From Candidatus Micrarchaeota archaeon (lineage in GTDB: Archaea > Micrarchaeota > Micrarchaeia > Anstonellales > Bilamarchaeaceae): a DNA stretch of 60,122 nt. Where the stretch lies: the NCBI GenBank assembly GCA_040754495.1, contig JBFMCO010000056.1, positions 1 to 60,122 on the forward strand, read 5' to 3'. Every line of letters starts with the position of its first letter. The stretch's first letter is position 1. The translations under genes were made by a program, and so were the position numbers. The notes under the pieces are model-generated. The model saw only the letters and a program-made list of their open reading frames with translations, made no database searches and was not told the origin of the DNA. Positions 21,303 through 56,915 of this stretch are shown here, piece by piece.

Positions 21303-21446
21303 TGGACTCGGGGGGAAATGCGTTGGGTTTCCGGTTTTCCGTTTCCAGTTCCGTAACAAAACTGGGAACTCGAGACTGGAAACACAATCTCGCACCCCCG
21401 GCCTCTCCCATGCCAAGGGAGCGCTCTGCTGCTGAGCTACGAGCCC
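21303..21446 (-). tRNA. tRNA-Ala(GGC) with a 72-nt intron at 59/60
   Basis: Acceptor GGGCTCG/CGAGTCC with G3:U70 and A73; D stem GCTC/GAGC; anticodon arm CTCCC-TTGGCAT-GGGAG; T stem GGGGG/CCCCC. Intron 21317..21388. Confidence 0.88.
21317..21388 (-). other. Archaeal tRNA intron with strict hBHBh' motif
   Basis: h = T stem; H = TGCG/CGCA; bulges AG|A and TT|T; h' = TTG.GTTTCC/GGAAAC.CAA. Confidence 0.85.
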
Positions 21447-21532
21447 ATCTGGGCTTTTCCGCCGGGTATCCTCAGGATAAAAGCCCGCAAAACTTCCTGA
21501 AGTAATTATCGCCGGAATAAAATATAATCCCA

Positions 21533-21757
21533 TCAGGCAGGCGATATGAACGTGACAGAGTCGCCGCGCAGGAGCACGGTCCCGACGCCTCTCTTCACTT
21601 CACCGTTGACAAGCTGCTCGGCCTTCTCGAGCACTATGTTCATGTGCACGTCGTAGGCAACCATGACTCCCCTGAACTCGAAGCCGCCTTTCATCCCTAT
21701 GATGACGGTGTTGTTCAGCGAGCCGTTCAAAACGTCGAATGGTCTTCTCTCTGGCAT
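21533..21757 (-). CDS. Sm-like (Lsm/SmAP1) protein
   Basis: RPFDVL, FRGVMVAYDVHMNIVL, LLRGDSV. Confidence 0.95.
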   Translation of the reverse strand: MPERRPFDVLNGSLNNTVIIGMKGGFEFRGVMVAYDVHMNIVLEKAEQLVNGEVKRGVGTVLLRGDSVTFISPA

Positions 21758-21811
21758 TGTTTCACCTCAAAAAATTAAAGTTCTCCTTATCAACATGATA
21801 GGGTTTAAAAA

Positions 21812-22309
21812 TCACTCGTTGTTCACGATGGTCTCTATCCTTCCCGGGCCCTTGAAGATGATTATCCTGTCGGCCGTGTTCCGGAGCGCCGCGCTGAAAG
21901 CGACGTCCGTGGCGATTATCATCGTCTTCTTGCCGCGCGCCTTGGCCTTGACCAGGACCGGGCGGTAGTCGGTGTCCCTCGTCATGAGCGCTATCATGTC
22001 GATTCCTGGGTCCAGGACGTACTCCATCGCCTCTATGGCCATCGTCACGTCCACGTCCCCGGTGGTCACGATGGTCTCGAAGCCCTGGTTTATCATGGCC
22101 TCGATGAGCTTGTCGGAAGCGTACTGGTCCAGGTATATCCGGGCCACCCTTATGTTGCCGTATTTCGCGAGCTCCTTCTTTATCTCAACCAGGTCGACGT
22201 TGAACGCCTTGCGCAGTATGTTCGGGCCGTCCACTAGAAGCGCCATGTCGGGCCTCTCCTTCAGCTGCTCCTTCTTCCCGAAAATCCTCTGCAGGTCTAT
22301 CATGAGCAT
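21812..22309 (-). CDS. NYN/PIN-domain protein (TIGR00288-like)
   Basis: LLVDGPNI, GDVDVTMAIEA, TRDTDYRP, LRNTAD. Confidence 0.85.
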   Translation of the reverse strand: MLMIDLQRIFGKKEQLKERPDMALLVDGPNILRKAFNVDLVEIKKELAKYGNIRVARIYLDQYASDKLIEAMINQGFETIVTTGDVDVTMAIEAMEYVLDPGIDMIALMTRDTDYRPVLVKAKARGKKTMIIATDVAFSAALRNTADRIIIFKGPGRIETIVNNE

Positions 22310-22312
22310 GCC

Positions 22313-23041
22313 CTATATGCTGAAACCGAAGAACTCCATCGCGTTCCTGGATGTCGCCGCGGCCACTTCCGCGGCCCCGATGCCCTTCACTTCGGCGATG
22401 TAAGCGGCCGCCTCCCTTATGCTCTCGGGGGTGCGCCCCACATAAGGCGAGTCGCTCTCGACAAGGAGTCTATCGAGCGGCACACTATTAATAACTTTCC
22501 TGCGCTCCTTCGAGCGCATGTGGGCTACTGAGATGTATCCCCCGCCATCCACAATCCTCCGGGCCTGCTCCTCGCTCCCGGAATAGAAGTGCATGAGCAG
22601 CCTCATGCCTCTCGTCAGCCTGATTATGTCCTCGACCGCGTCCTTCGGGACCTCGTTGTCGGCGGGGTTGTTCCTGGAGTGTATGACGATGGGGAGCCCC
22701 ATCTCCCGGGCGAGCCCTATCATGCGGGAAAAGACGAGCACCTCCCCGTCGACGTGCGCTTTCGTGGTGGCCCACTTGTAGTCCAGGCCGACCTCGCCTA
22801 TGGCGTTCGGCCTGCTCTCCCGTATGAAAGACACCCACTCCTCCAGCTTCGATACGCCCTCCTTTACGGTCGTCTGCGGCGCGATGCCGAGGACGAAGGG
22901 GTAACCGCCAGCCCTGGCAGTCTCCACCGCCTTCCTGTTGGACGAGTGCGAGTATCCCACGACTACCGGGTATATGTCTGGGGGCAGGGCGTACCCTTTT
23001 TTCATGTCGAAAAGATGGCAGTGGGAATCGATTAGCGTCAT
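22313..23041 (-). CDS. tatD: TatD-family hydrolase
   Basis: IDSHCHL, AIGEVGLDY, IHSR, HFYSG, ESDSPY. Confidence 0.92.
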   Translation of the reverse strand: MTLIDSHCHLFDMKKGYALPPDIYPVVVGYSHSSNRKAVETARAGGYPFVLGIAPQTTVKEGVSKLEEWVSFIRESRPNAIGEVGLDYKWATTKAHVDGEVLVFSRMIGLAREMGLPIVIHSRNNPADNEVPKDAVEDIIRLTRGMRLLMHFYSGSEEQARRIVDGGGYISVAHMRSKERRKVINSVPLDRLLVESDSPYVGRTPESIREAAAYIAEVKGIGAAEVAAATSRNAMEFFGFSI

Positions 23042-23106
23042 AATCCAGGTTTAAAAACCTTAACCATTTATAACCTATAGTTCTCGAATTGTCGCCAGGT
23101 GTATTG

Positions 23107-23499
23107 ATGGTAGAGAAAGTTTTTGCTATAGCCAAAGAGCTAAGGGAAGGCAAGTACGTGCTCATAGACGACATCCCCTGCAAGGTCGTGGAGATAGAGA
23201 GCTCCAAGCCGGGCAAGCACGGCGCTGCCAAGATGAGGATTACGGGGATAGGAATATTCGAAGGCCAGAAGAAGACGCTGCTCTCGCCGGGCGACGCGGA
23301 CGTCGAGATACCTATAATCGAGAGGAAGAACGTCATGATTCTGTCCGTCTCGGGCAACAGCGCCCAGGTGATGGACCAGCAGAGCAACGAGGTCTACGAC
23401 CTCGAGCTGCCTGCCGACCTCGTTAGCGCAGTGGCCCCAGGCAAGGAGGCCGAGGTCATCGAGGCCATGGGAAGGAAGAAAATGGAGAGGGTCAAATGA
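23107..23499 (+). CDS. eif5a: Translation factor aIF-5A
   Basis: SKPGKHGAAK hypusination motif. Confidence 0.95.
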   Translation: MVEKVFAIAKELREGKYVLIDDIPCKVVEIESSKPGKHGAAKMRITGIGIFEGQKKTLLSPGDADVEIPIIERKNVMILSVSGNSAQVMDQQSNEVYDLELPADLVSAVAPGKEAEVIEAMGRKKMERVK

Positions 23500-25985: not shown

Positions 25986-25996
25986 GCAGCGGATTC

Positions 25997-26866: not shown

Positions 26867-26918
26867 AATGCGTAATTTATATCACATAATTTATAAAGCT
26901 AACACAAAATGCCGCCTC

Positions 26919-30229: not shown

Positions 30230-30991
30230 ATGCTTGAGAACAGCTTCGTCCATCTCCCTGATTTCGGCCCGCGGAGGGAGCGGAGGCTCTGGGGCAGCGG
30301 CGTGGAGAGCTGGGACGACTTCCTCGGGCGCTTTTGCGATTCGCCGTACCACCGCCTCGCGTGCTCAATCCTCGAGCACTCCAAGGACGCGCTGAGGCAC
30401 AATGACGCCAATTATTTCGGCGACATGCTCCCGCGCGAGGACGCCTGGCGCAGCTTCCCGCATTTTCGGAGGGTCGCTTACCTGGACATCGAGACCACGG
30501 GCCTCGCGCCAGAGACCGACTACGTCACGGTCATCGGAGTATTCGACGGCTCGCGGACGCACAGCTACGTCCACGGGCAAAATCTCGACGAATTCCAGGA
30601 TGACATGAAGAAGTACGACCTCATAGTAACGTTCAACGGCTCCCTGTTCGACATCCCCTTCCTCAGGAAGCACATCGGCGGCCTCAGGCTGAGCCGGCTC
30701 CATGTGGACTTGCGCTTCGTCCTCGCCTCGCTCGACGTGCGGGGCGGCCTCAAGAAAATCGAGCAGAAGTTCGGCCTTGAGAGGGAAGACGACCTCAAGG
30801 GCCTCACGGGCTACGACGCGGTCAAATTGTGGCAGGCGTACATCAAGAGGAACGACAATGATGCGCTGGACAAGCTGGTGCGCTACAACTCCGCGGACAT
30901 CTCGAACCTGAAAGTCCTGATGGAATGGTCGTACAAGGAGAAAAGGCTCAGGACAGGATTCGACGAGATAATGAACGGAAAAGAAAAATAA
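30230..30991 (+). CDS. RNase H-like (YprB/DEDD) exonuclease domain protein
   Basis: AYLDIETTGL, TFNGSLFDIP, HVDL, GGLKKIE, YNSADI. Confidence 0.88.
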   Translation: MLENSFVHLPDFGPRRERRLWGSGVESWDDFLGRFCDSPYHRLACSILEHSKDALRHNDANYFGDMLPREDAWRSFPHFRRVAYLDIETTGLAPETDYVTVIGVFDGSRTHSYVHGQNLDEFQDDMKKYDLIVTFNGSLFDIPFLRKHIGGLRLSRLHVDLRFVLASLDVRGGLKKIEQKFGLEREDDLKGLTGYDAVKLWQAYIKRNDNDALDKLVRYNSADISNLKVLMEWSYKEKRLRTGFDEIMNGKEK

Positions 30992-31025
30992 AACCGGCAA
31001 CCGGATGCAGAAGACCGGAAACAGC

Positions 31026-32772: not shown

Positions 32773-33186
32773 TTTTTCCCTCTTTTTCCTCCTCTTTGCT
32801 GTGGTTTTCCACAGTTTTCCGAAAAACCTTGGTCTTACTGCTCATCCGGCACGCCGGATGATAGATATATTTTTAAATCCTGCCAGCGTACGGTAGAACC
32901 CCATGCAAAAGTTGCGCACCTTTGGGTCGCGCAGACAGGATTCAGGCTTTGTGCCGTCTCCGCTACCGGTATCCAGGTTTCAGGGTTCCGGGGGCTTGAG
33001 GCAGTGTTCTGCGCTAATGGTGCGCGCGGCGACCGGGTGACCAGGATGTTCGGGTGGATACTTAAGACCGATTGGGATATCAACCGTGTGATGAGATGGT
33101 ATTCGAGGCGGCACGTGCGGCCGAGGGCAACCTGCAGGCAGTGCTGAACCGCCCCTCTCTTTAATTTTCTCTTTTTTATTCTCTTC

Positions 33187-40356: not shown

Positions 40357-40530
40357 AAGACCGCCTCCGGTCCCCCCGCCTTTGTATGCGAGGGCATTAA
40401 TAAAAACCCAATCGGTCAAATCAGATTCCAGCATCCAGTTTCCTGTATCCGGAAGGGACGGCAAAACTGGAAACCTGCGACGGGAAACCTATTGGTGGAA
40501 TCTCAGAAACATCAGGGTTTCCTGAGTCTT

Positions 40531-40687
40531 GCCCCTGTAGCGCAGTCCGCCTTTTGGGAAAAGGCGGTCCAAAACCGCCTGATGAAAACCCTTCGGGTTT
40601 TGGGTCGTTTCAAACAAAAGCCGGGCGTCACGGTAGCGCGCGTCCTTGGTAAGGACGAGGTCCGGGGTTCAAATCCCCGCGGGGGCT
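40531..40687 (+). tRNA. tRNA-Thr(GGU) with an 85-nt intron at 15/16
   Basis: Acceptor GCCCCTG/CGGGGGC, U73; spliced D-loop AG|CGGTA; anticodon arm CGTCC-TTGGTAA-GGACG; T arm CGGGG-TTCAAAT-CCCCG. Intron 40546..40630. Confidence 0.88.
40546..40630 (+). other. Archaeal tRNA intron with relaxed HBh' motif
   Basis: H = GCGC/GCGT; bulges AG|T and CA|C; h' = CCG.CTTTTG/CAAAAG.CGG; no outer h helix. Confidence 0.8.
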
Positions 40688-40727
40688 TACATCTGCACTT
40701 CTTCTGTTATCCGCTTTTTGCGCAGAT

Positions 40728-40764
40728 GGTTTCCGGTTTCGGGTTCAGGGTTTCCGGTCCCGGG
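40728..40764. repeat. Short tandem array of degenerate TTCCGGT/ACCGGAA heptamers
   Basis: TTCCGGT TTCGGGT TCAGGGT TTCCGGT. Similar arrays at 21325..21352, 30993..31022, 32964..32992, 40466..40489, 56393..56418, 56692..56725 and 56760..56780. Confidence 0.7.
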
Positions 40765-40838
40765 CTTATAAACCGCAAACTTCGATTTTTGATAACAATC
40801 TTTATAATCATATTCTATCATTACTATACACGATACTC

Positions 40839-43695: not shown

Positions 43696-44391
43696 GTGAT
43701 GCCCATGGACGGCCATCTGGGTTTACGCGAACTGCTGCTTGTGGGCCTGCTGATAGTCGGGCTGGCGGCAGCTGTTTTCCTGCTCTTCGGAGGCAGGCCA
43801 GCCACCCCTGCCGCGCCTGAGCCTCCGCCTGAGGAGCCGGCCGCCGCGCCTGAAGATGAGGCTCCTCTTGCCGCAGCTCCTGAGGAGCCATCCCAGGCCG
43901 AACCGGAAGCGGAGGCAAACGTGACCAACAAGAGCGTGGGGCAGCTCCTCGACGAAGGAGTGCTGAGGGCAGATTCGCGCTTCTACCAGGAAGTTGAAAC
44001 CGGCAAATACGACATAAAGGCATACCAGTGGGCCCTGGGCTCGTTCGGCATGCCGCCCGACAGCGTCCCGCTCAAGGAAAACGACCTGAGGGCATCCTCA
44101 GTCCGCTTCGATGGCCGTTACGAGGACAGCCTGAGGGGGTTCGGATTCAAGACATACCAGCCCCAGAACCTCAGCGGCCCGCCGAGAATATACGGGACCG
44201 CGGTGTTCCTGTCTTCGCCCGGCCCGCTCCCGTCCGGTAAGTTCGACGTGGAGTTCGACCCGCACCCCGAAGGTACGCAGATAATAGAAGACTGCACGGT
44301 CCTGACCTCGGAGGAGCTCCAGACCGGGACGGGCGCGGCATTCACGGTTTACGATATAAGCTGCAAGATAATGTACGGTGCGTTCCCATGA
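43696..44391 (+). CDS. Membrane-anchored exported protein
   Basis: N-terminal TM, P/E/A linker, domain starting KSVGQLL that is shared with the next gene. Confidence 0.75.
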   Translation: MMPMDGHLGLRELLLVGLLIVGLAAAVFLLFGGRPATPAAPEPPPEEPAAAPEDEAPLAAAPEEPSQAEPEAEANVTNKSVGQLLDEGVLRADSRFYQEVETGKYDIKAYQWALGSFGMPPDSVPLKENDLRASSVRFDGRYEDSLRGFGFKTYQPQNLSGPPRIYGTAVFLSSPGPLPSGKFDVEFDPHPEGTQIIEDCTVLTSEELQTGTGAAFTVYDISCKIMYGAFP

Positions 44392-45152
44392 GACTGCTGA
44401 TGCTTTTGTTAGCCGGAGCCCTGCTGTTCGCAGGTTGCGCAACTCCACCTGCCGGAAACCAGACCGGGCCGGTCCAGACTCCGCCAGCCCAGCCCAACGC
44501 AACGCCGCCGGCGATGGCATGCTCGGAATACTGCCTCACACTGCCGCACATCCAGTGCGTCGGGGAATGGAAGATATCCGGCACCTACCCCAACTGCGTA
44601 TGCGAGTACGAATGCACCACCGCCAACGAAACAGGAAACGGGGAACCGGAAACCAACGCGACACCGCCGGCAGCGCCGCCGGAAGAGCCCCTCGCCACGC
44701 CAACCACCAAGTCCGTATCCCAGCTCCTCTATGACGCCATGGCGAGGACCGAGAGCGACTTCTACCGCGAGAACGACGGCTCTTTCATCCAGAAGAACTA
44801 CACCTGGGTCAGGAAGACCCTCCAGCCCGGAGGCCTGGCTTACGACGCGCCAGCTGATGACGTGAAATTCGACGGGAAGGCAATCGCCTCCATCGAGGCG
44901 TTCGGCTATACAGTATTCGAAGACCAGGCAGATGATGTCAAAAAGGCATACGGCGCCGCAATCTTCAAGGCGAAAACCACGCCTCTCGACTCATATACCG
45001 GCTCCGACGCGTTCGACATCAATTACTTCTACCAGCAGGAGAACGGCCTCCTCAAGGACTGCTGGGCCTACACCCGGGACTACAACGTGAACCAGGCAGA
45101 TGACTGGTTAGTGACGTATGTCTTCAGGTGCGAGAAAGTGCTTGACAAATGA
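44388..45152 (+). CDS. Lipoprotein with a six-Cys module, paralog of the upstream gene
   Basis: LLFAGC; CSEYCLTLPHIQCVGEWKISGTYPNCVCEYEC; KSVSQLL domain. Confidence 0.8.
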   Translation: MRLLMLLLAGALLFAGCATPPAGNQTGPVQTPPAQPNATPPAMACSEYCLTLPHIQCVGEWKISGTYPNCVCEYECTTANETGNGEPETNATPPAAPPEEPLATPTTKSVSQLLYDAMARTESDFYRENDGSFIQKNYTWVRKTLQPGGLAYDAPADDVKFDGKAIASIEAFGYTVFEDQADDVKKAYGAAIFKAKTTPLDSYTGSDAFDINYFYQQENGLLKDCWAYTRDYNVNQADDWLVTYVFRCEKVLDK

Positions 45153-45356: not shown

Positions 45357-45509
45357 GGGAATCTACTCCGCCGATTAGCTATCGGCATACTTTACTGGTC
45401 GTGGTTCGCTAACTCGGATAAAATTTATAAAGGTATGTTCCTCCGGCGTCAAACCGAAACTCTTTCGGCCGTCCTAATCCTTAATAACTTTACCATTTAT
45501 ATCAGCACC

Positions 45510-48500
45510 ATGCGACTCCCGGCTGTTATAGCGCTGATGATGCTTGCGGGCCTTTCGTTTTCCCTTGCCAACGTTACCGGCTGCATGAATATCAGCTCGT
45601 CCGACACCTACGAATTGACGGGCGCTATTGCCGGAGCTAACATATCCGGATACCCGAATATCGTCGGAAACGTATGCCTGAGGATATCTGTCTCGAACGT
45701 GGCTCTCGACTGCAAAGGATTCACGCTCACCGGCGCCGGAGCCCCTACTGCCGGCATCGCGGCTGAAGAGTCGTCCGCCGCCCCCATAAGCAATGTGACG
45801 ATTAAAAACTGCGTCATCACCAACTACACCCAGGGCATTATACTCGAGAACACCCACTCCTCCCTCGTGTACAACAACACCGCCTTCAACAACACCCACA
45901 ACGGCTTCTTCATAACCTTCAACAGCAGCGGGAACAACATCAGCTCGAACGTCGCGTTCAACAACACTTTCGCCGGGTCGGACAGCGATGCCGCCTTCAT
46001 AGTATTCGGTTCCGACAGCAACGTCCTCTCGAGCAACAGGGCATACGACAACTCTATGCACGGATTCTTCCTGCTCTCTGCAAGCGGCAACTCCCTCGTC
46101 TCCAACAACGCGACCAACCACCCGCTCTCCGGATTCAGGGTTTCCGCGAGCGGGAACTCGCTCGCATCCAACATAGCGCTCGACGACAACATCGGCTTCA
46201 ACGTCTCGGGCTCCAGCAACAATTTCACTGGCAACACCGCGAACAACAGCGGCCAGCAGGGATTCCTTCTTGAGGGCGGCTCAGGCAACCGCCTCACCGG
46301 CAACACCGCAGCCCACAGCTCGGACCCCGGCTTCCTCGCGCGGCTGGGTGCGACCGGCGACACGTTCCTCTCGAATTTCGCATACAACAACTCCAACACC
46401 GGATTTTTCATGTCCTCCGGGAGCCACAACCTTAGCGGCAACCTCGCGGACCTCAACAATGGCGCCGGGTTCTTCGTAAACTCCGGCTCCAACACGCTCT
46501 CAGCGAACAACGCCACGAGGTCCATCGGGCCCGGCTTCTACGCCTTCAGCGGCGCCACCAGCACTGATTTCTCGGACAACTACGCGTCCGACAACGACGA
46601 CGAGGGCTTTCTCATCCAGAGCGACAGCAACACCTTCTTCGGTGACCGCGCCGAGAACAACACCTACGGGTTCCTGCTGGATTCCGGAGCGGACTTCAAC
46701 GCGCTTACTGACGTCACCGGCTCGTTCAACTCTGTAGACGGCCTGCTCGTCGATTCGGATGGCAATTCCGTGGACCCGTCGTTCTTCTGCAACAACACGG
46801 GCAACGGCATCACGATAACCGGCGCTTCGGGCAACTCGGTCTCCGATTCCGTCGCCTGCAACAACACGAACGACGGCCTCTACGCGGAGGATTCCACGGG
46901 CCTCACCCTCGCCGGCAACTCATTCAGCGGCAACACCCAGAACGGGGTCGAGTTCGACAACGTCAATTCGAGTTCCGTCTCTTCGAGCAACGCCACGGCC
47001 AACGGGAACAACGGCTTCACCGCCGCGGACGGCGTTTCCCTCTCGTTTTCCGGGAACTCGGCGAGCGGCAGCGGCGGGAGCGGATTCATCATCAACAACG
47101 GGACCGGAGTCAACCTGACGGCAAATGCCGGCTCGGGCAATTCTATCAACGGCTTCCTGGTCTCAGGCGGTACGGGCATCCGTCTTTCCGGCAACAACGC
47201 GTCAGGAAACAGCTTCAGCGGGGTCATCCTCACCGGCTCGGCCAACAACACGCTTAGCGGCAATAACGCATCGTCCAATTCGGTTTCGGGCTTCAGGCTC
47301 CTGTCCACCCCAAGCGCCAACCTTTCCACGAACAGCGCTTCAGGCAACGGCGCGGATGGATTCTTCCTGTCAGGCTCGTTGGGCGGCGTTTTCCTCTCCA
47401 ACAACGCCTCAGGCAACACGGGCGACGGCTTCGACTTCGGCACGAGCTCTTCCTACCTCATGACGTACGACACAGCCTCCGGAAACGGCGGCTACGGCAT
47501 GCTCTTCACGTCCAGCCCGGGCGGCATCCCGCAAAACGCAACCATAACCTCGAACGGACTGGATGGCATGGCGTTCTTCTCGAGCCCGGGCGGCATCCCT
47601 CAATACAACAACGTCTCGGGCAACTCCGGCAACGGCATCACGATGGTCTCAAGCGGGGGCAAGATACCTATCGGCAACATCATCGGCGGAAACTCCGGGG
47701 ACGGCATATACTCCGATGACAGCGGGGGCAGCATATTCGACTCCAACGTCATCTTCTCGAACGGAGGCAACGGCCTTGCGGCGTACAACGATTCCGGAGG
47801 CATATACGGCCCTAACGTCATTTTCGGAAACGGCCTGAACGGAATCCTCGTCTCCAATATTAACTCAACCATCTTCTACCTCAGCAACATCTCGAACAAC
47901 AGCCTCGACGGCATTGCGGTCACCGGCGCCTCGGGAGGCAATATCATAAGCGACAACATCGTTGACGGCAACGGTGCGGACGGTATCTCCGTCGACGCAA
48001 GCCCTGCCAACACCCTGCAGAACAACACGCTCTTTGGCAACGCCGCGAACGGCCTTTACCTCTTCGATTCAAACGGAACGGCGCTTGTCTCGAACCACTA
48101 TTACAACAACACGCTTGACCTAGCGGTGGAATCCGCCTTCGGCAACCCGTTCAATTACTCGATGGCCGGGAATGTCTTCGACAACCCCTCCGGCGGATTT
48201 TCGAACTACACGAACCTCTCCATCACGGACCAGGTGGAGCTGGACGGCTTCCACAGCATAAGCTGGGATAACCAGCCTGCGCCCCCTCCTCTCCCCATCA
48301 ACCAGGTCAGCTTCAGGGGCAAGTTCGCCAACATAACGCTGTGGTTCGGCTCGACTTCGATAGACAACATCACATGGCACTGGCTTGACTCGGAGACGGC
48401 GGGCTACAATGAAGCCACGTTCAGGCTCTGGGAATTCGATGCGGGCGGCTGGGCCGTAGTGAACGGAACGCCGGACATCACGGCTAACACGCTGTCCCTT

Positions 48501-49646
48501 GCGAACGTCAGCACCTTCAGCGATTTCGCCATCCTGCAGAACAACCCCCAGCCTTCCCCCGATGATGGGGGCGCTCCGTCCGGTGAGGCGCTCTCAGTAG
48601 CTCTCGCGCCGTCCTGCAACGGATTCATCGTGAGGGTGAAAGACGGCGGCGACCCTGTCGCGGACGCGTTCGTTGAAGGAACCGACGCCACCCACGGCAC
48701 GGAGTTCAGCCCCAGATACACCAACGAGTCCGGCGAGGCGTACTTCGGCACGTGCGACATAGATGTTTCCATGGAAGTGTCTTCTGGCGGCCTCAGCGGG
48801 GACGCATCAGGATTCGCCGCGTGCGGAGCCTGCGCTGAATGCGCATCCGACCTGGACTGTCTCGATACCGAGCAGTGCGTCGCACAGCAGTGCGTGCCCC
48901 TCTATTGCGAGGGCGGCCAGGCAGTGGACCACTCCTGCGAGCCTTATGAATGCACGTCGGACAGCGACTGCCCGCAGGGTCTGCAGTGCGTAGGCCACGA
49001 GTGCGTCGAGGCCTTCGAATGCGATGAAAACTCCGACTGCCTGCCTGCGCAGTTCTGCGAAATAGCCCCCGGCCAGGCGGGCGGAAGCTGCAAGGACGTG
49101 CAGTGCGCCTGCGGCACTATAATGGACCATGCCTGCGTCAGCTTCGAGTGCTGCGCGGACAGCGACTGCGATGCGGGGGAGCGGTGCATCTCAAATGCGT
49201 GCGTGCAGGCGGACGTAACCTGCCCATCGACCGGCCTTGTCGGCGACGAGAAGACCTGCGAGGCGAAGGAGGACGGCGAGGTTTGCACTGACTGCGACTT
49301 CGTAATCACCGACCCCTCAGGCAAAAACTTCACGGGCAAGACCGATGAGAACGGCAATTTCGGCTTACCCCTGCAGTTCGAAGGCACATACCGCGTGGCC
49401 CTGCTCAGGAACGGCACGGTGGTGAAGGTCATAGAGGTCAAGGCATTCCCGAAAGCCGAGAGCGGCGGCGGGGAGGAGAAGCCCCCTGCGCTGATTAGCG
49501 AGGAGATGGTCCAGGCGGGCCTCATCATCCTTCTAGTCGCGCTTGCCATCGGCGGCATACTCTACTGGAGGAAAGGGCAGGGAAAGAAGCCTGCCGCACC
49601 CCAGAAGGCCCCCGAGGCCAAGCCTCCGGCCAAGGCCGGGAAGTAA
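45510..49646 (+). CDS. Giant parallel beta-helix (NosD/CASH-like) surface protein A
   Basis: Signal peptide, many N/S-rich beta-helix rungs, Cys-rich repeats, C-terminal TM and Lys-rich tail. Confidence 0.88.
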   Translation: MRLPAVIALMMLAGLSFSLANVTGCMNISSSDTYELTGAIAGANISGYPNIVGNVCLRISVSNVALDCKGFTLTGAGAPTAGIAAEESSAAPISNVTIKNCVITNYTQGIILENTHSSLVYNNTAFNNTHNGFFITFNSSGNNISSNVAFNNTFAGSDSDAAFIVFGSDSNVLSSNRAYDNSMHGFFLLSASGNSLVSNNATNHPLSGFRVSASGNSLASNIALDDNIGFNVSGSSNNFTGNTANNSGQQGFLLEGGSGNRLTGNTAAHSSDPGFLARLGATGDTFLSNFAYNNSNTGFFMSSGSHNLSGNLADLNNGAGFFVNSGSNTLSANNATRSIGPGFYAFSGATSTDFSDNYASDNDDEGFLIQSDSNTFFGDRAENNTYGFLLDSGADFNALTDVTGSFNSVDGLLVDSDGNSVDPSFFCNNTGNGITITGASGNSVSDSVACNNTNDGLYAEDSTGLTLAGNSFSGNTQNGVEFDNVNSSSVSSSNATANGNNGFTAADGVSLSFSGNSASGSGGSGFIINNGTGVNLTANAGSGNSINGFLVSGGTGIRLSGNNASGNSFSGVILTGSANNTLSGNNASSNSVSGFRLLSTPSANLSTNSASGNGADGFFLSGSLGGVFLSNNASGNTGDGFDFGTSSSYLMTYDTASGNGGYGMLFTSSPGGIPQNATITSNGLDGMAFFSSPGGIPQYNNVSGNSGNGITMVSSGGKIPIGNIIGGNSGDGIYSDDSGGSIFDSNVIFSNGGNGLAAYNDSGGIYGPNVIFGNGLNGILVSNINSTIFYLSNISNNSLDGIAVTGASGGNIISDNIVDGNGADGISVDASPANTLQNNTLFGNAANGLYLFDSNGTALVSNHYYNNTLDLAVESAFGNPFNYSMAGNVFDNPSGGFSNYTNLSITDQVELDGFHSISWDNQPAPPPLPINQVSFRGKFANITLWFGSTSIDNITWHWLDSETAGYNEATFRLWEFDAGGWAVVNGTPDITANTLSLANVSTFSDFAILQNNPQPSPDDGGAPSGEALSVALAPSCNGFIVRVKDGGDPVADAFVEGTDATHGTEFSPRYTNESGEAYFGTCDIDVSMEVSSGGLSGDASGFAACGACAECASDLDCLDTEQCVAQQCVPLYCEGGQAVDHSCEPYECTSDSDCPQGLQCVGHECVEAFECDENSDCLPAQFCEIAPGQAGGSCKDVQCACGTIMDHACVSFECCADSDCDAGERCISNACVQADVTCPSTGLVGDEKTCEAKEDGEVCTDCDFVITDPSGKNFTGKTDENGNFGLPLQFEGTYRVALLRNGTVVKVIEVKAFPKAESGGGEEKPPALISEEMVQAGLIILLVALAIGGILYWRKGQGKKPAAPQKAPEAKPPAKAGK

Positions 49647-49726: not shown

Positions 49727-52700
49727 ATGCGGCCTTTTGCATTTTTGGCGATACTGCTGGTTATCTCAGGATTTGCTTTTTCGGTGGACATTTCAGCCTG
49801 CACCAACATCACGGGCTCCAACTCGATCTACAACCTGACAACCAGCGTCAGCGGAGCCCCTTTCCCGTATTACTTCGGCTCTTACAATACCTGCATGCTG
49901 ATAAGCGCATCGAACATAACCCTGGACTGCGGCGGGAACAGCATAACAACGACCGATGACAGCAGTATCGTGATAATCAACGCGTCAAACGTCACAGTTC
50001 GGAACTGCATCCTCAACAACGGCACTGGCATAGAGCTCCTCAGTGCCGGCATCGGTGTGGACGGCCCCCAAAACAGCCAGATAACCAACAACCAGATAAA
50101 CCCCAGCTTCGCAGGCATCAGCGGCGTCCTTTCTTTCGGCGCCGCAGGAAACAACACCATCAGCGGCAACAACATCACCGGCGGGACTTACGGCGTATGG
50201 GAGCCAGGTGAAAATTCCACCATCTCCAATAACCGCTTCCTTAACCAGGGCTCAATCGGGCTGGTGGATGGCGGCTTCAACAATACCGCGACGAACAACT
50301 ACATAAACGGGAGCGGCGGGTTCGGCATGATGCTTGACGGTTCCAACCTCAACGTCATGTCGAACGTGGTAGGGAACAGCACCGATGTAGGAATTTACGT
50401 GAATGCTTACAACTCTACGATCTCCGACAACAACGTCTCCTCCAGCGGCGGACACGGCGTACAGATGGGCGACGGCGGCTCCGACGACGAGGCCAATTTC
50501 GTCGTGCTTTCGGGCAACCGGATATCCTCGAGTGGCGGAAACGGAATCCATGTCGAGGGCAGCACCGATAATCTGATACAGGGCAATATCATATCAGGCG
50601 CGAGCGTGGGCATCTGGCTGCAGAACGGCTTCGGCGAGGGCTTCCACCCTGCCGTGGACAACAGCTTCAGCAACAACGTAGTATCCGGGAGCAGCAGCAA
50701 CGGCGTCTACCTTACCGGCGTCTCTTCGAACAACTTCACGGAGAACAACGTGTCTTTCAACGGGGATGACGGCCTTTTCGTAGACTCGTCGTCCTCAATC
50801 TTCATTGACCCCTCGTATTTCTGCAACAACACGGGCAATGGGCTCACAATCAATGCCTCGACCAACGTGACCGTGACGGACTCCGTCTTCTGCAACAACA
50901 CCGGCAGCGGCCTTCTCGTATTCCTCTCCAATAACAGCCTGATATCAAACAACACGGCGCTGAACCACTCGAGCATCTCCAATGCATTCGACATACAGAA
51001 CAGCACCGGAATAAACCTGAGCGGCAATGTCGCGGATGATGCGAACGTCGGCTTCAATCTCTTATTCAGCCCCTCAAACATACTTGCGAACAACACGGCC
51101 CTCGACACAAGCACCGGCTTCCTTCTCAGTTTCAGCGGAAACAACGTGCTGTCGGGAAATAACGCGTCTAACGGGGGACTGGGCTACCGGAACTCGTTCA
51201 GCTCCGACAATACGACCTTCCTGAACAACTATGCCCAAAACAACACCCTTGCCGGTTTCTTCGTGGCCGAAGGCTCGGATAATGTCACGCTCCGCGCCAA
51301 CACCGCCCTGAACAACAGCCTCCAGGGCTTCGAAGTCACAATCGGCTCCGACAACAACACCCTGGAATCGAACCTGGCCTCCAGGAACGGCGGCACAGGC
51401 TTCATTATAATAACAAACACCGGAAACAACCTGACCAACAACACGGCGTTCAATAACACGGGGGCGGGCTTCGAGTGCTCATCCGCAAATAATTCCCTCT
51501 TAATCAACAACACGGCCACCTTCAACGGAGGAAGGGGGCTGCTGCTAAGCTCGTGCCACAATAACCTGATAAGCGACGGCATCTTCAACAACAACTCCAA
51601 TACCGGGGTCCAGGCGTCCTTCAGCACGAACAACACCTTCCGGAGGAACGTCGTCGCGAACAACACGTTCGGCGGCTTCACGATAGCCCAGGGCTCGAAC
51701 GACAGCGTAATCGCCAACAACACCGTTTTCCTCACTACCGACGCATACTCATTCAGCCTCAGCTCGAGCAGGAACCTGGTGGCGAACAACACCGCATTCA
51801 ACAACTCAGGAACCGGCTTCCGCGCGGTCTCGGCAGCCAACAACAATACGTTCCTGAACAACACGGCCTACCGCAACGCGATAGGTTTCGACATGACCTC
51901 TGCAAACGGGAACAACCTCACGGGCAACACCGCGCACTCGAACACGCAGGCAGGAGTAACGATAGGCGGCGCGACCACGAACGTCTCCACGCACCACATC
52001 TACAACAACACGGTCGGCCTTGCCCTCAGCGGGAATCTCTTCAGCGTCAGCCTGAGGGAGGTAATATTCGACAACCCCGCCGGCAATTTCGCTGACTTCA
52101 CGAACGTCAGCCTGAACGACACCATCCCGGTATCCGGCGGCTCATACAACATGACTTGGAGCGCCCTCCCGGCCGCGCTGCCCGGTTTCACCGGCTCGTT
52201 TGCGAACAAGCACCTGAATATCACCAACACCTCGTCAAACGCTTCCATAGACAGCATCACCTGGCACTGGACGAACACCGAGTCAGCAAGCTACCTCGAA
52301 GAACGCTTCGAGGTCTGGAAATACAACGCCTCGGGCTGGTCCCAGGTTTCTGCAACCCTTGACCCCGGGACGAATACCCTGAGCGTGGCCAGCCTCGGGC
52401 CGTTCAGCGTTTTCTCGATACTGCAGAACGACGGCTGCCCCGCGCCAATAGCGTCGCCGGGCACATACCTCCTGAATGGCAGCGTGGTCGGCGCCTCGAA
52501 CGATGCCTCCCCGCTCTCCAACTTCAGCTGCATCAAGATAGCGTCTTCGGACGTGGCCCTGGACTGCCAGGGCTTCAGCGTTACCGACAACGGCACCGCG
52601 GGAACGACCTACGGCATTCTGCTGAACAATTCCGCTACGAACGTAACCGTAAGGAACTGCGTGGTCTCCGGCTACAGCGTCGGCATGAGGACCATCTCGT

Positions 52701-55700
52701 CCGACAACGGGCTGTTCGTCAACAACACCGCGTTCAACAACTCGCTCTACGGATTCAACCTGGACAGCTCATCGGATTCGAACCTGCTTGCCAACAACAC
52801 CGCATACAACAACACGGCCGGCTTCTTCCTCGTGGGCACGGCAAACGGCAACAACCTCACGAACAACACCGCCCACAGCAACGTCAACTACGGAATAATC
52901 CTCCAGTCCGGCGCGCTGCTCAACCGCCTGGTTTCCAACCTTGCCTACAACAACTCGTTTGCAGGATTCGGCGTCCTAATAGGCTCCAACACGAATACGC
53001 TCTTTAACAACATCGGCCATTCGAACGGGCAATTCGGGTTCTATCTGGATACGGTCAACTCGACCAACATGACCAGCAACACAGCGTACAACAACTCCAA
53101 CTCCGGCATCGAGCTCGTATCGAGCCCGGCCAACCTCCTTGCCGACAACAACGCCTCGAACAACAGCTTCGACGGGCTGGTCCTGGTAACCTCCAGCAAC
53201 AACGTGGTCGACCCGTCGTACTTCTGCGGCAACGGGGATGACGGCATCTACGTTTCGTCCTCCAGCGGCTCGCTCATCACTGACAACGTCGCCTGCAACA
53301 ACGGCGGCAACGGGATAGAGGTATCCGCCTCGTCCAGCGTCACGCTGGGAAATAACAGCGTCTTCGGCAACTCCGACCACGGTATATTCCTGTCGTCGGT
53401 GACCTTCAGCAGCCTTGCCGGAAACGGCGTCTACAACAACAGCGGGGCTTTCGTCTCAGGCATATACCTTGGCTCCTCGTCCAACAACACGCTCTCAGGC
53501 AACACCGTGTACAACAACTCCGTCTATGGCATCCGGCTTTTCGCGAGCTCGGACAACAACCTCACCAACAACTCTGCATACGACAACTTCAACGGGATAT
53601 TCGCTGCGACCTCGCCATTCAACAACCGCTTCGTGAATAACACTGCGCACGACAACCCCAACGACGGCTTCACGGTATCGGGCGGCGGCGGGAACTTCTT
53701 CAGCGGCAACACGGCCTACCTCAACTCAAGGGGCTTCAATCTCGATACCGGCCCGGACAACACCCTGAGCGGCAACGCTGCATACAACAACTCCAACGGG
53801 TTCAGCCTGGCGGCAAGCGACAACAACTCGCTGGGCAGCAACCTCGCCTACAACAACACCAACACCGGATTCAGGCTGGAGGTGGGCTCGGACGGCAACA
53901 CCCTGTCCAACAACACGGCCACGGAAAACCTTTACGGTTTCAGGGTCGAATCCGGCTCGGACGACAACGACCTCACGAGCAACAATGGCTCCGGCAACAT
54001 ATTATCCGGCCTTGTCATAACCGACTCGAACGGCAACACGGTCGACCCGTCGTTCTTCTGCAACAACGGAGGAAGCGGCATCGAAGTGGACAACTCGAAC
54101 GATACCATTGTCGAAGATTCGACCGCCTGCCTCAACGGCGATGACGGCGTCCAGGTCACAGGCTCCACGGATATCACGCTGGACAACGTGAGCGCCTACA
54201 ACAACACGAACGGATTCAGCTTCCTCTTCGGAGGCTCCACGAGCGGAAACGCCTTCTCCAACAATGCCTACAACAACAGCGCCTCGGGCTTCTCCGTATC
54301 AGTGGAAAACATGCTGGGCTTCAACTTCACCGACAATAACGCAGCCGAGAACGGCGCGAACGGCTTCACGGTCAACGGGGCCGCAAGCGACCTCGTGCTC
54401 TTCCAGGACAACAACGCGACCGATAACGCCGACATGGGCTTCGACGTGGAGAACCTCGACCTCGTCAGCGTCATACACAACAATGCAACCGGGAACGGCG
54501 GCATAGCGTTCTACCTGTTCAGCACCCAGTCCTACCTGCTCCCTGTCCACAACAACACCGCGACCGGCAACGGCGGCGACGGCTTCGTCTTCGAAAGCGC
54601 CGAGGCCAATGTCTCGGGTAACCTGGCCGATTCCAACGGCGGCTCGGGCTTCATCTTCGACGACATGTTCATGGGCGGAACGTCCATCCTGAACAACACC
54701 GCCTCAGGAAACGCGGGCAACGGCTTCGATGCAAAGTCCTTCATCGGAACCTCCGGCCTTCTCGTGAACAACACGGCCCGCAGCAACGGGCAGGCCGGCC
54801 TGTACGCAGCGTCGCTCCTTGCCCCGACCATGGCGGTGGGCGACCACTACTACAACAACAGCCCCGACTTCCTGGCAAACGGCACCGGAATCAACGTGAC
54901 GCTCTCAGGGGTGGTCTTCGACAGCCCGGCCGGCCTCTACCCGGACTACACCAACCTGTCCCTCAACGACACCGTGGCATCGGCATACTCCATAGACTGG
55001 ACGAACAACGCCAGCAGCCTGCCTCTTCCGGGGAACCATATCTCATTCGCGCAGAAGTTCGTCAATATAACGAACCTCTCCGGAAACGTTTCCATAGATT
55101 CAATAGTATGGCACTGGCTCGATTCCGAGACCGGAGGATACAACGAGGCGCAGTTCCAGCTGTGGAAGTTCAACCCCATAAGCCTCTGGGCATTCCAGAA
55201 CCAGAGCCCTGACACGGCCACGAACACCCTGTCTCTCAGCAACCTCAGCAGCTTCAGCGACTTTGCAATCCTGCAGAACGCGCCGCAGCAGCCGCAGCCG
55301 GAGGACGGGCAGCCTTCCGAGGAAGGCCTCGATGTGGGGATAAAGCCATCCTGCAACGGCTTCATAATAACCGTAAAAGACAGCGGCGACGCGGTAGAGG
55401 ACGCATTCGTTGAAATCAACGACGAGACGCACGGCACGGAGCTCAGCCCGAGATACACCAACTCCTCTGGCCAGGCATTCGTAGACATCTGCGACATAGA
55501 AGTCAGCATAGACGCCACGAAGTCCGGCAAGGACGGCTCAAAATCAGGCTTCGCGGCCTGCGGCATCTGCCCGGAGTGCGCGACAGACGAGGACTGCCTC
55601 GGAAGCGAGCAGTGCACCAACCAGCAGTGCGTGCCAATCTACTGCCCTGACGGCGAGGCAGTCGACCATGCCTGCGAGCTTTACGAATGCACATCCGACA

Positions 55701-56362
55701 ACGACTGCCCCGAAGGGCAGCAGTGCATCGGCCACGAGTGCAAGACGGTCTTCGAGTGCGATGGCAACGAGGACTGCCTGCCTGCGCAGTTCTGCGAAAT
55801 ACCTATCGGGCAGCCGGGCGGAAGCTGCAAGGACGTGCAGTGCGCCTGCGGCACTATAATGGACCATGCCTGCATCAGCTTCGAGTGCTGCTCAGACAGC
55901 GACTGCCCGGCCGGGGGGCGGTGCATCTCCAACGCATGCGTGCAGGCGGACGTCACCTGCCCGTCTACAGGCGTAGTGGGCGACGAGAAGACCTGCGAGG
56001 CGAAGGAGGACGGACAGGCTTGCGAGGACTGCGATTATATCGTCACCGACCCCTCAGGCAAGAACTTCACCGGGCGTACGGACGAGAACGGCAACTTTGA
56101 CCTTCCGCTGCGGTTCGAGGGCACCTACAGGGTGGCCCTCCTCAGGAACGGCACGGTGGTAAAGGTCATCGAGGTCAAGGCCTTCCCGAAGGGTGAAGGG
56201 GAAGGGGATGGAAAACCGTCCGCCGCAGGATTTGATGCGGCCACCGCGATCTTCATAATCGTCCTTGCCCTCCTTGTGGTGGCGGGGCTGCTGTACTGGA
56301 GGAAAAGGGGGAAGAAGGCTGAGCCGAAAGCGGCCAAGGCCGATAAGCCCCCGGCAAAGTAG
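49727..56362 (+). CDS. Giant parallel beta-helix surface protein B (2211 aa)
   Basis: Same architecture as A, with the beta-helix plus SIDSI.WHW module present twice; C-terminal TM. Confidence 0.9.
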   Translation: MRPFAFLAILLVISGFAFSVDISACTNITGSNSIYNLTTSVSGAPFPYYFGSYNTCMLISASNITLDCGGNSITTTDDSSIVIINASNVTVRNCILNNGTGIELLSAGIGVDGPQNSQITNNQINPSFAGISGVLSFGAAGNNTISGNNITGGTYGVWEPGENSTISNNRFLNQGSIGLVDGGFNNTATNNYINGSGGFGMMLDGSNLNVMSNVVGNSTDVGIYVNAYNSTISDNNVSSSGGHGVQMGDGGSDDEANFVVLSGNRISSSGGNGIHVEGSTDNLIQGNIISGASVGIWLQNGFGEGFHPAVDNSFSNNVVSGSSSNGVYLTGVSSNNFTENNVSFNGDDGLFVDSSSSIFIDPSYFCNNTGNGLTINASTNVTVTDSVFCNNTGSGLLVFLSNNSLISNNTALNHSSISNAFDIQNSTGINLSGNVADDANVGFNLLFSPSNILANNTALDTSTGFLLSFSGNNVLSGNNASNGGLGYRNSFSSDNTTFLNNYAQNNTLAGFFVAEGSDNVTLRANTALNNSLQGFEVTIGSDNNTLESNLASRNGGTGFIIITNTGNNLTNNTAFNNTGAGFECSSANNSLLINNTATFNGGRGLLLSSCHNNLISDGIFNNNSNTGVQASFSTNNTFRRNVVANNTFGGFTIAQGSNDSVIANNTVFLTTDAYSFSLSSSRNLVANNTAFNNSGTGFRAVSAANNNTFLNNTAYRNAIGFDMTSANGNNLTGNTAHSNTQAGVTIGGATTNVSTHHIYNNTVGLALSGNLFSVSLREVIFDNPAGNFADFTNVSLNDTIPVSGGSYNMTWSALPAALPGFTGSFANKHLNITNTSSNASIDSITWHWTNTESASYLEERFEVWKYNASGWSQVSATLDPGTNTLSVASLGPFSVFSILQNDGCPAPIASPGTYLLNGSVVGASNDASPLSNFSCIKIASSDVALDCQGFSVTDNGTAGTTYGILLNNSATNVTVRNCVVSGYSVGMRTISSDNGLFVNNTAFNNSLYGFNLDSSSDSNLLANNTAYNNTAGFFLVGTANGNNLTNNTAHSNVNYGIILQSGALLNRLVSNLAYNNSFAGFGVLIGSNTNTLFNNIGHSNGQFGFYLDTVNSTNMTSNTAYNNSNSGIELVSSPANLLADNNASNNSFDGLVLVTSSNNVVDPSYFCGNGDDGIYVSSSSGSLITDNVACNNGGNGIEVSASSSVTLGNNSVFGNSDHGIFLSSVTFSSLAGNGVYNNSGAFVSGIYLGSSSNNTLSGNTVYNNSVYGIRLFASSDNNLTNNSAYDNFNGIFAATSPFNNRFVNNTAHDNPNDGFTVSGGGGNFFSGNTAYLNSRGFNLDTGPDNTLSGNAAYNNSNGFSLAASDNNSLGSNLAYNNTNTGFRLEVGSDGNTLSNNTATENLYGFRVESGSDDNDLTSNNGSGNILSGLVITDSNGNTVDPSFFCNNGGSGIEVDNSNDTIVEDSTACLNGDDGVQVTGSTDITLDNVSAYNNTNGFSFLFGGSTSGNAFSNNAYNNSASGFSVSVENMLGFNFTDNNAAENGANGFTVNGAASDLVLFQDNNATDNADMGFDVENLDLVSVIHNNATGNGGIAFYLFSTQSYLLPVHNNTATGNGGDGFVFESAEANVSGNLADSNGGSGFIFDDMFMGGTSILNNTASGNAGNGFDAKSFIGTSGLLVNNTARSNGQAGLYAASLLAPTMAVGDHYYNNSPDFLANGTGINVTLSGVVFDSPAGLYPDYTNLSLNDTVASAYSIDWTNNASSLPLPGNHISFAQKFVNITNLSGNVSIDSIVWHWLDSETGGYNEAQFQLWKFNPISLWAFQNQSPDTATNTLSLSNLSSFSDFAILQNAPQQPQPEDGQPSEEGLDVGIKPSCNGFIITVKDSGDAVEDAFVEINDETHGTELSPRYTNSSGQAFVDICDIEVSIDATKSGKDGSKSGFAACGICPECATDEDCLGSEQCTNQQCVPIYCPDGEAVDHACELYECTSDNDCPEGQQCIGHECKTVFECDGNEDCLPAQFCEIPIGQPGGSCKDVQCACGTIMDHACISFECCSDSDCPAGGRCISNACVQADVTCPSTGVVGDEKTCEAKEDGQACEDCDYIVTDPSGKNFTGRTDENGNFDLPLRFEGTYRVALLRNGTVVKVIEVKAFPKGEGEGDGKPSAAGFDAATAIFIIVLALLVVAGLLYWRKRGKKAEPKAAKADKPPAK

Positions 56363-56490
56363 GGTTGCAGAAGGGTTCCGGCGCCTCTCAGGACCGGAAA
56401 CAGGGAACCGGAAACCCCTCAGCCGCTGCTGAGTGGAGAAGAATAATAAAAAATTCGCCCCAACCGCGATTTGAACGCGGACAGCAACCT

Positions 56491-56674
56491 TTCCGCCTTT
56501 TGGAAAAAGGCGGCCCAAAACCTGTTGTCGATTTTGCCTTTGCGGGCAAAATAACTTTCAAAAAACCCGAAAGGGTTTTTCAATCGCAGGTTTTTTGGGC
56601 GCTTTTTTCCCAAAACGACAGGGAGCGAAGCTCCCTGTGCCCCATTGTTCGATTCGAACAATAGGGAAGCGCAA
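56491..56674 (-). other. 184-nt canonical-position tRNA intron made of tandem hairpins
   Basis: H = CTGC/GCGG; 3' bulge AA|A closed by the anticodon stem; h' is weak. Confidence 0.78.
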
Positions 56675-56691
56675 CCGCAGGGTTGCGTCCT

Positions 56692-56725
56692 TTCTGTTTC
56701 CGGCACCCGGTTTCGGGTTTCGGAT
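56692..56725 (-). other. 34-nt D-loop tRNA intron made of heptamers; exact junction uncertain by about 1 nt
   Basis: CTG/CAG and TCCG/CGGA helices with an AA|A bulge; removal gives D-loop AACCTGGATA. Confidence 0.7.
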
Positions 56726-56915
56726 ATCCAGGTTAGACTATTGGGGCAGCAATAATGTCTCCCGTCTCCGGTTTCCGGTCAAGGGAGCGGATTTTTGCCC
56801 GATGGACAGATTTAAATAGGTATAGCTTTTAAATTATTCTCTGCATTTTCTCGGTGGTGTTTGGCCTTCCCGAGGGCAGGCCGGCTCATCACTTTCTCAA
56901 AAGTCAGGTGGTATA

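Follow-up and report, generated by a model that had tools for sequence, protein, structure and literature searches.

Heptamer arrays and interrupted tRNA genes of the window

The window analysed here is a 60,122-nt stretch of a Candidatus Micrarchaeota archaeon (GenBank GCA_040754495.1, contig JBFMCO010000056.1), which is contig C56 of the assembly that we label G000 (1.63 Mb, 72 contigs, 59.5% G+C, ~80% complete). It carries the intron-containing genes for tRNA-Ala(GGC), tRNA-Thr(GGU) and tRNA-Arg(GCG), together with short tandem arrays of a degenerate heptamer, GGTTTCC/GGAAACC, which lie mostly between genes and also form the bodies of two of the tRNA introns (Table 1). An earlier note on this DNA had cited eight such arrays and taken them for one repeat family that supplies tRNA intron sequence as well as intergenic arrays. 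A period-7 scan, in which an array was called when 12 or more of 14 positions agreed with the periodic consensus, recovered all eight as degenerate GGTTTCC/GGAAACC arrays. In support of that claim, they all belong to a single family of short, degenerate NGTTTCC tandem arrays dispersed in the genome. The assignment of heptamers to the Ala intron and to the Arg D-loop intron was right as well. No arrays had been noticed in coding sequences (CDSs) in that non-exhaustive look; one clear array does lie in a CDS.

Standard tRNA finders detected one tRNA (ARAGORN) and two tRNAs (Rfam) in the window. Most tRNA genes of G000 are interrupted by introns and are overlooked by both programs, and the 35 tRNA loci used below come from a tRNA finder of our own.

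Table 1. Arrays, tRNA genes and introns discussed in the text. Positions are those of the window unless a contig is named; T-type and A-type denote arrays of GGTTTCC and GGAAACC, and the fourth column gives the scan call at the eight places cited earlier.
Feature	Position	Strand	Scan-called array	Description
tRNA-Ala(GGC) gene	21303..21446	-		72 nt of exons and a 72-nt intron; read from sequence
T-loop (59/60) intron of tRNA-Ala(GGC)	21317..21388	-		A + heptamer hairpin + CGCA + TT
T-type array	21323..21352	+	21323-21346	GGTTTCC GGTTTTCC GTTTCCA GTTCC; in the tRNA sense the 3' (A-type) arm of the intron hairpin
A-type arm	21357..21384	+		ACTGGGA ACTCGAG ACTGGAAAC; partner of 21323-21352
tRNA-Arg(GCG) gene	56456..56747	-		Two introns; exon join from intronless orthologs in G022 and G054
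D-loop intron of tRNA-Arg(GCG)	56692..56725	-	56706-56723	34 nt; ATCCGAAAC CCGAAAC CGGGTGC CGGAAAC AGAA; almost wholly heptamer units
Canonical (37/38) intron of tRNA-Arg(GCG)	56491..56674	-		184 nt; other small hairpin modules, without heptamers
tRNA-Thr(GGU) gene	40531..40687	+		D-loop intron of ~85 nt (~40547-40631); read from sequence, and also found by our own tRNA finder
A-type array	30990..31022	+	30990-31006	AAACCGG CAACCGG ATGCAGA AGACCGG AAAC; fills the whole 34-nt spacer between convergent genes
Weak T-type array	32964..32992	+	32976-32991	In a 414-nt spacer between tandem genes
Polar pair	40438..40489		40464-40477 (opposed arm 40438-40452)	T-type arm 40438-40452, A-type arm 40464-40489; hairpin-capable; 42 nt upstream of tRNA-Thr
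T-type array	40726..40764	+	40726-40746	GGTTTCC GGTTTCG GGTTCAG GGTTTCC GGTCCCG; 39 nt downstream of tRNA-Thr (trailer or spacer)
A-type array in CDS	44628..44655	+		Inside CDS 44388-45152, a predicted lipoprotein; in-frame ETGNGEPET
A-type array	56393..56418	+	56393-56417	31 nt past the stop of the 2,192-aa open reading frame 49784-56362; short T-type stub GGGTTCCGG before it
T-type array	56760..56781	+	56760-56781	Between A/T-rich promoter boxes (56811-56840) and the tRNA-Arg 5' end
Weak borderline T-type array	1814..1832	+		Inside CDS 1609-2547
173-bp MITE copies	G000 C4:12969-13141, C31:22816-22988, C40:17773-17950			See text

A family of dispersed arrays

Chance is excluded as the origin of the arrays, which stand far over the composition-based expectation. 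Allowing up to two mismatches, we counted 11 copies of GGTTTCCGGTTTCC in the window; 100 shuffles gave 0.60 on average and never more than 3. Genome-wide, 1,626 segments of 21 nt match the periodic consensus at 17 or more positions, compared with 3-4 in order-3 Markov simulations, and ~1,990 segments of 28 nt have at least 21 matches (0-5 simulated). Clustering gave 332 raw arrays, and the real arrays in G000 number roughly 200 or more. About one third of the two-unit arrays stand at the simulated background, so that the arrays at 32964-32992 and 30993-31022 are weak members.

The impression that arrays gather at tRNA genes held as a real though modest enrichment, the array density per kb being 1.8 within tRNA loci, 2.7 in their 100-nt flanks and 0.94 in other non-coding DNA. 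Arrays lie inside 8 of the 35 tRNA loci, all of them genes far exceeding mature tRNA length.

Heptamers in the introns of tRNA-Ala and tRNA-Arg

The tRNA-Ala(GGC) gene is missed by ARAGORN and scores 26.3 bits with Rfam, below the cut-off. The array placed by the earlier note at 21325-21352 of its intron is real, and is just one arm of a two-armed hairpin. The minimum-energy fold comprises the T stem, a UGCG:CGCA helix, two 3-nt bulges and a long inner heptamer helix, a predicted strict bulge-helix-bulge motif. In 10 congeners the ortholog differs only by lacking the intron and has the empty site, GGGGGTGCGAG directly followed by TCCCCCC, as does that of genome G012 (11 intronless orthologs); removal of the intron from the G000 gene restores a standard tRNA identical to them, and no target duplication was found at the intron site. 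The paralog Ala(CGC), on contig C4 of G000, carries the same 72-nt intron (68 of 72 positions identical, four differences) between identical flanking exons. Taken with the intronless Ala(GGC) orthologs, this identity suggests that Ala(GGC) gained its intron as a copy from Ala(CGC), probably by gene conversion.

Twelve congeners likewise have a T-loop intron at 59/60, in Ala(CGC) or Ala(UGC). These introns have unrelated interiors, in most cases made of a CCGCCTTTT hairpin module, and nearly all of them end 3' in CGCA-NN. The Ala(CGC) intron of G012 is a homologous heptamer intron of 78 nt. The idea that orthologous introns vary in 7-nt steps failed in this single homologous pair (72 nt vs 78 nt), which differs by indels of 1, 3 and 4 nt. 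The simplest history suggested by these sequences would be an old T-loop intron of Ala(CGC), a heptamer interior acquired in its place in the G000/G012 lineage, and, in G000, a copy into Ala(GGC).

The Ala(GGC) trailers of G000 and congeners (window 21230-21303; loci L002, L003, L005, L007) hold a separate hairpin, GTCCATTTTCC ... GGAAAATGGAC, its far arm complementary to the tRNA 3' end plus trailer, followed in the congeners by another unit like it. The hairpin may serve as a processing structure or be left over from an integration site.

The tRNA-Arg(GCG) gene was found as a single copy in the assembly. For its D-arm with the D-loop intron, the predicted fold has an energy of -21.4 kcal/mol (z -4.4) and makes up 79% of the ensemble; both splice points fall in internal loops (3x3 and 4x2) that flank a 3-bp helix, CUG:CAG, a predicted relaxed bulge-helix-bulge. 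Removing the insert restores a standard tRNA matching the intronless orthologs, and no target duplication was found at this site either. The site, GGAT joined to AGGAC, is empty in 20 of 26 orthologs. It is filled in the other six genomes by five different interiors (that of G000 and four others; G041 and G046 share one, and one genome, G265, belongs to another genus) with the common 3' end [AC]CAGA[ACT]. These shared bases are the ones needed to pair with the D-loop CUGG, so that homology and convergence predict the same ends. Either introns have arisen at this site repeatedly, as at a hot spot, or an old intron has had its interior exchanged rapidly.

Contig C14 of G000 encodes a 391-aa EndA that has both the N-terminal and the catalytic domain. 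It aligns end to end with PDB 4fz2 (E 1e-132), an entry which we take to be the epsilon2 splicing endonuclease of Ca. Micrarchaeum acidiphilum ARMAN-2. Judged by this match, the G000 protein is a broad-specificity epsilon2-type splicing endonuclease. In vitro, strict as well as relaxed motifs are substrates of the ARMAN-2 enzyme, 59/60 introns included (PMC3239211), and the Ala and Arg introns would be expected to be excised by the host endonuclease. A second EndA-like open reading frame (168 aa, C31:19181-19687, L039:1276-1782) matches the catalytic domain only (E 4.6e-8) and has a heptamer array just upstream.

Takeover of existing introns or creation of new ones

We suggest, with a probability of roughly 0.55, that the heptamers are tolerated inserted DNA that took over the interiors of pre-existing introns, and we regard this as the best explanation. 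A sequence-specific process would lay down NGTTTCC arrays throughout one family-level clade of Micrarchaeota. The arrays would be position-unconstrained inserts, presumably neutral, that survive where they do little harm, i.e., past gene 3' ends, in variable protein linkers and in the removed parts of tRNA genes. In tRNA introns they would supply the inner helix (h') of the bulge-helix-bulge, with the exon-pairing bases of the central helix kept, and an epsilon2-type endonuclease could for that reason still cut the intron out. Most probably the heptamers took over the interiors of two older non-canonical introns, the Ala T-loop intron at 59/60 and the Arg D-loop intron, and the Ala intron would then have been copied from tRNA-Ala(CGC) into tRNA-Ala(GGC). 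Since relatives have unrelated interiors with similar ends at both sites, replacement of the inner hairpin is the simplest reading, and takeover of existing introns appears more likely than their creation de novo.

The earlier view of a spreading repeat that is tolerated in tRNAs only when removed stands in part: the arrays of three tRNA genes lie in removed parts alone (intron interiors, a probable leader and a trailer). The route of intron gain proposed with it is less well supported, the Ala(GGC) intron being a paralog copy and both intron sites holding unrelated interiors in relatives.

Intron gain de novo, by insertion of an array into the intact D-loop of tRNA-Arg and earlier into an Ala T-loop, would have made a cleavable bulge-helix-bulge directly. 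The Arg D-loop intron is the better case for it, being almost entirely heptameric at a site that is empty in most orthologs, the two syntenic congeners included; its last unit, GGAAACAG, itself gives the CAG of the central helix, and the unit is rich in self-complementary CCGG and readily forms helices. A broad-specificity endonuclease gene is present, and a 2026 preprint on Asgard tRNA introns describes repeated gains at splice-competent sites, the route of arrival being left open. Turnover of the interior fits equally well with the unrelated interiors and similar ends found at both sites in other genomes, that of another genus among them; the Ala(GGC) intron was acquired by paralog copying, not by fresh insertion, and no half-way state was seen. 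We consider gain de novo unlikely.

Several points weigh against takeover by tolerated DNA. The intron ends shared among relatives comprise just 4-6 nt, exactly the bases of the splice motif, on which independent gains could converge. A tree of two proteins from nine genomes was a star with no resolution, so that gains and losses of the Arg intron are not polarised. The strict polarity, 3'-end bias and clade-wide conservation of the unit (see below) are unexpected for simple neutral junk. Splicing, leader status and transcript ends are predictions from the DNA sequence, and the analysis rests on gene calls of our own in an assembly of the completeness given above.

Distribution among relatives

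The window has syntenic counterparts in two congeners, contigs G022:C8 and G054:C1 (~70-75% nucleotide identity), and no array of the window was found at the orthologous place in either. Relatives are too distant for base-by-base alignment of intergenic sites. G000 has 17 copies of the exact double unit, and each of the 24 congeners searched has 0-4. A degenerate three-unit pattern has 352 matches in G010, 286 in G000, 129 in G003, 121 in G044 and 84 in G012, and two or fewer in about 20 congeners (0-19 in backward-read controls). A wider survey covered 200 genomes drawn from the phylum, all of the same class: the three-unit pattern is present in 32 of 37 same-family genomes, representing at least 13 genera, with up to 237 matches, and stands at background in almost all of the ~160 genomes outside the family. 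Loci of two other genera carry the GGTTTCC unit, in one of them as a pair of T-rich then A-rich arms. Across a deep clade, then, the heptamer unit stays the same even though the places where it occurs change.

Outside the family, G159 (family f19), with 82 matches, and G131 (f22), with 22, stand well above control, which could reflect horizontal spread or independent expansion.

Polarity, placement and possible origin of the arrays

Brought into one orientation, the arrays share the unit N-G-T-T-T-C-C, whose first base varies freely. GGTTTCC contains no stop codon in any frame, and the longest G run of the unit, whichever strand is read, is GG, short of the GGG per unit that a G-quadruplex would take. 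The outer edge of the arrays is sharp and the inner edge decays toward GTTTTG; genome-wide comparison of the arrays found no conserved flank, terminus, target motif or loop sequence around them. Runs of good units comprise two units in 34 arrays, three in 50, four in 39, five in 11, six in 3 and seven in 2, the mode of 3-4 depending on the threshold.

Where opposed arrays lie within 80 nt of each other, a T-rich arm precedes an A-rich arm in 28 cases and follows it in one. This arrangement is its own reverse complement, so that the polarity holds on both strands. Loops of 3-74 nt of unrelated sequence separate the arms, and the polar pairs can fold as hairpins. We detected no compensatory change between arms: complementarity to the own partner is 0.436 and to partners from other loci 0.473, and exact hairpin pairing is thus not under compensatory maintenance. 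Duplex energies favour the partner polarity in non-coding arrays only (61:34), a noisy measure in GC-rich DNA.

Array density is ~10 times higher in non-coding than in coding DNA (1.11 vs 0.11 per kb). Coding DNA was masked with our own hexamer-scored gene caller, used in place of a first open-reading-frame mask that over-called coding DNA and was dropped.

The arrays may be functional cis-elements, bound by a conserved protein or RNA-binding factor of the clade or acting as bidirectional 3'-end hairpins that stop or stabilise transcripts, with the tRNA intron copies as by-products. Their placement is consistent with this, as arrays occupy 26 of 77 convergent spacers (34%), 66 of 489 tandem spacers (13.5%) and 17 of 252 divergent spacers (6.7%), lie in the stop-proximal half of tandem spacers, and present a T-type arm first after the stop codon in 48 cases vs 22; a polar pair that reads identically from both strands and a unit kept across at least 13 genera agree with it as well. 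DNA uptake sequences and other recognition motifs likewise keep their unit while sites turn over. The heptamer repeats of Xanthomonas are similarly placed and mostly transcribed (PMC4692102). A cis-element would hardly be expected to lie at sites that syntenic congeners do not share, to be essentially absent from ~20 congeners, to occur in CDS linkers and introns, or to have arms without co-variation, and the U-rich arm lies 5' of the hairpin, unlike known terminator designs. Oligo-T (T5 or longer) follows 15.7% of array-bearing genes vs 28.7% of others; the shorter non-array remainder of the spacer accounts for this deficit, and we do not count it as evidence that arrays substitute for oligo-T terminators. 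A function in cis seems to us less probable than intron gain de novo.

Dispersed hairpins of similar habit are known from bacteria. REP/REPIN elements with their RAYT transposase are short extragenic repeats near gene 3' ends that form fixed-order inverted doublets and hairpins, in hundreds of copies with a patchy occurrence. The G000 arrays resemble them in their mostly extragenic position near 3' ends, in the hundreds of copies, in the patchy copy number among species and, in part, in the fixed order of their hairpin-capable doublets (28:1). Whole units of T-arm, loop and A-arm might therefore have been spread by a transposase acting in trans, solitary arrays being decayed halves, and the sharp outer edges and the four TnpB genes of G000 would suit such a mobile hairpin. 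None of the TnpB genes adjoins an array, and PF01797, the Y1 (RAYT/IS200) transposase family, had no match in the ~80% complete G000 assembly. The arrays differ from REP/REPIN further in their 7-nt periodic arms, which are unequal, in the variable number of units (2 to 7) and in the lack of a full-length consensus or of a conserved terminal or loop sequence, and from a miniature inverted-repeat transposable element (MITE) in having neither defined terminal inverted repeats nor target-site duplications at the Ala and Arg sites. The sole near-identical array copies are passengers within a 173-bp MITE-like element with terminal repeats of its own. A mobile hairpin appears improbable, ranking below a cis-element.

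The 173-bp element is present in three copies (88-97% identical; Table 1), bounded by the terminal inverted repeats CAGTAnnTCCGAAC and with a heptamer hairpin in its centre.

A strand-specific activity that adds GGTTTCC to 3' ends at DNA breaks, followed by joining of tailed ends, would give T-then-A pairs. Such tailing predicts the 28:1 polarity without further assumptions, together with a sharp outer and a ragged inner edge, unequal arms that do not co-vary, solitary arrays, and the lack of target duplications and of a conserved loop. It is purely a model, and we know of no break-tailing activity of this kind in archaea. The simplest form of the model predicts a direct CCGG junction, whereas unrelated loops separate the arms, and no reverse transcriptase or telomerase-like gene was found in the ~80% complete assembly. 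We regard tailing at breaks as very improbable, the least favoured of the origins considered.

Polarity, 3'-end bias and a unit conserved clade-wide imply a conserved generator or reader; of possible partner genes, neither a Y1 transposase nor a reverse transcriptase was found in G000 at ~80% completeness. It is conceivable, though speculative and in our estimate unlikely, that this family-level clade carries a conserved strand-specific activity that writes or reads GGTTTCC arrays, which would serve as a standing supply of hairpin sequence for tRNA intron interiors, possibly for new introns, and for protein linkers. Candidates for such a writer or reader would be a polymerase for 3'-end tailing or for repair, or else a dedicated DNA- or RNA-binding factor, e.g., one that reads transfer/uptake or 3'-end signals.

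Relation to known repeats and introns

Heptameric repeats that are dispersed in a genome include the STRR family of cyanobacteria. For Xanthomonas (GGGAATC) and Nostoc (GGGGA(C/T)T), Rehm et al. 2015 (PMC4692102) describe hundreds of arrays that favour four units, are over-represented in non-coding DNA, lie no more than 50 bp from stop codons and are scarce between divergently oriented genes. The G000 family is alike in its hundreds of short dispersed 7-nt tandem arrays, non-coding bias, stop-proximal position and depletion from divergent spacers, in a clade-specific unit and in an unexplained origin; its threshold-dependent mode of 3-4 units lies near the four preferred in those bacteria. It differs in its archaeal host, in having GG only, with no GGG tracts of the quadruplex type, in its strictly polar, hairpin-forming inverted pairs, and in building tRNA intron interiors, which is absent in the bacteria. 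The TAACTGA repeats of Beggiatoaceae (MacGregor 2015, PMC4679880) lie just upstream of start codons, whereas the G000 heptamers follow stops.

For introns, the closest case is that of the Thermoproteales, where similar non-canonical introns occur in different tRNA genes (Fujishima et al. 2010, Mol Biol Evol 27:2233, as cited in PMC3239211). The near-identical introns of Ala(GGC) and Ala(CGC) in one genome (68/72) are of this kind; the hosts in G000 are isoacceptor paralogs with identical flanking exons, for which gene conversion suffices, and the intron body comes from a mostly intergenic repeat family. Disrupted tRNA genes and the epsilon2 endonuclease of ARMAN-2 have been described by Fujishima 2011 (PMC3239211) and Hirata 2012 (PMC3488258). 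G000 shares with ARMAN-2 introns at 59/60 and at other non-canonical positions, several introns per gene and, by the match given above, the endonuclease; it differs in the dispersed repeat family that forms the substance of introns, which the parts of these two papers used here do not mention for ARMAN-2. Full-text literature searches on the GGTTTCC double unit and on repeats of Micrarchaeota gave no hit. The new elements are the 3'-end statistics, the family-wide distribution, the empty or differently filled intron sites and the intron copy between Ala paralogs.

How non-canonical tRNA introns of archaea arrive and are renewed is an open question (2026 Asgard preprint). G000 provides a case with a traceable source of intron sequence, a mostly intergenic repeat that also forms the bodies of several tRNA introns, and the splice sites of relatives, which are empty, filled by other modules or filled by heptamers, make turnover of the interior separable from creation of the intron. 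The introns are substrates that can be tested with a known enzyme. In Archaea, this polar heptamer family, with a unit kept clade-wide at sites that come and go, parallels the heptamer repeats of bacteria, which are likewise unexplained.

Other features of the window

The tRNA-Thr(GGU) gene is seen by Rfam as a half match at 40624-40679. Its D-loop intron is without heptamers and holds a different hairpin module, CCGCCTTTT...AAAAGGCGG, with heptamer arrays on both sides of the gene. Such modules represent a second repeat family, small hairpins CCGCCTTTT(N)AAAAGGCGG followed by CCCAAAAC (window 40531-40687 and 56491-56674; L028-L036), which fill the Thr D-loop intron, the 184-nt Arg intron, and T-loop and other Ala introns in many congeners. 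Three groundwater DNA runs yielded just short contigs of relatives. In a contig of a related strain, X1, tRNA-Thr and the far flank match the window, and 97 other letters replace 40690-40765, which includes the trailer array; no 7-nt step indels were found in the contigs from these runs.

The array at 56760-56781 probably lies in a 5' leader of tRNA-Arg that would be removed by RNase P, the leader being presumably transcribed from the upstream promoter boxes; A/T-rich archaeal promoter boxes are the dominant intergenic k-mers in G000. The tRNA-Arg orthologs have 12-56 nt at the leader position, with heptamers in none. The distance from the promoter boxes to the tRNA-Arg 5' end ranges from ~12 to 63 nt among congeners (window 56748-56840), and G000, G022 and G054 have long unrelated inserts in this leader, suggesting that it too is a site of sequence turnover.

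The CDS array sits in a variable low-complexity linker of the predicted lipoprotein, and the G022 ortholog has a 10-aa gap just after the array. Two very long neighbouring reading frames on the + strand follow, 45435-49646 (~1,400 aa) and 49784-56362 (2,192 aa), and blast detected stretches of similarity between the two and with several places in congeners.

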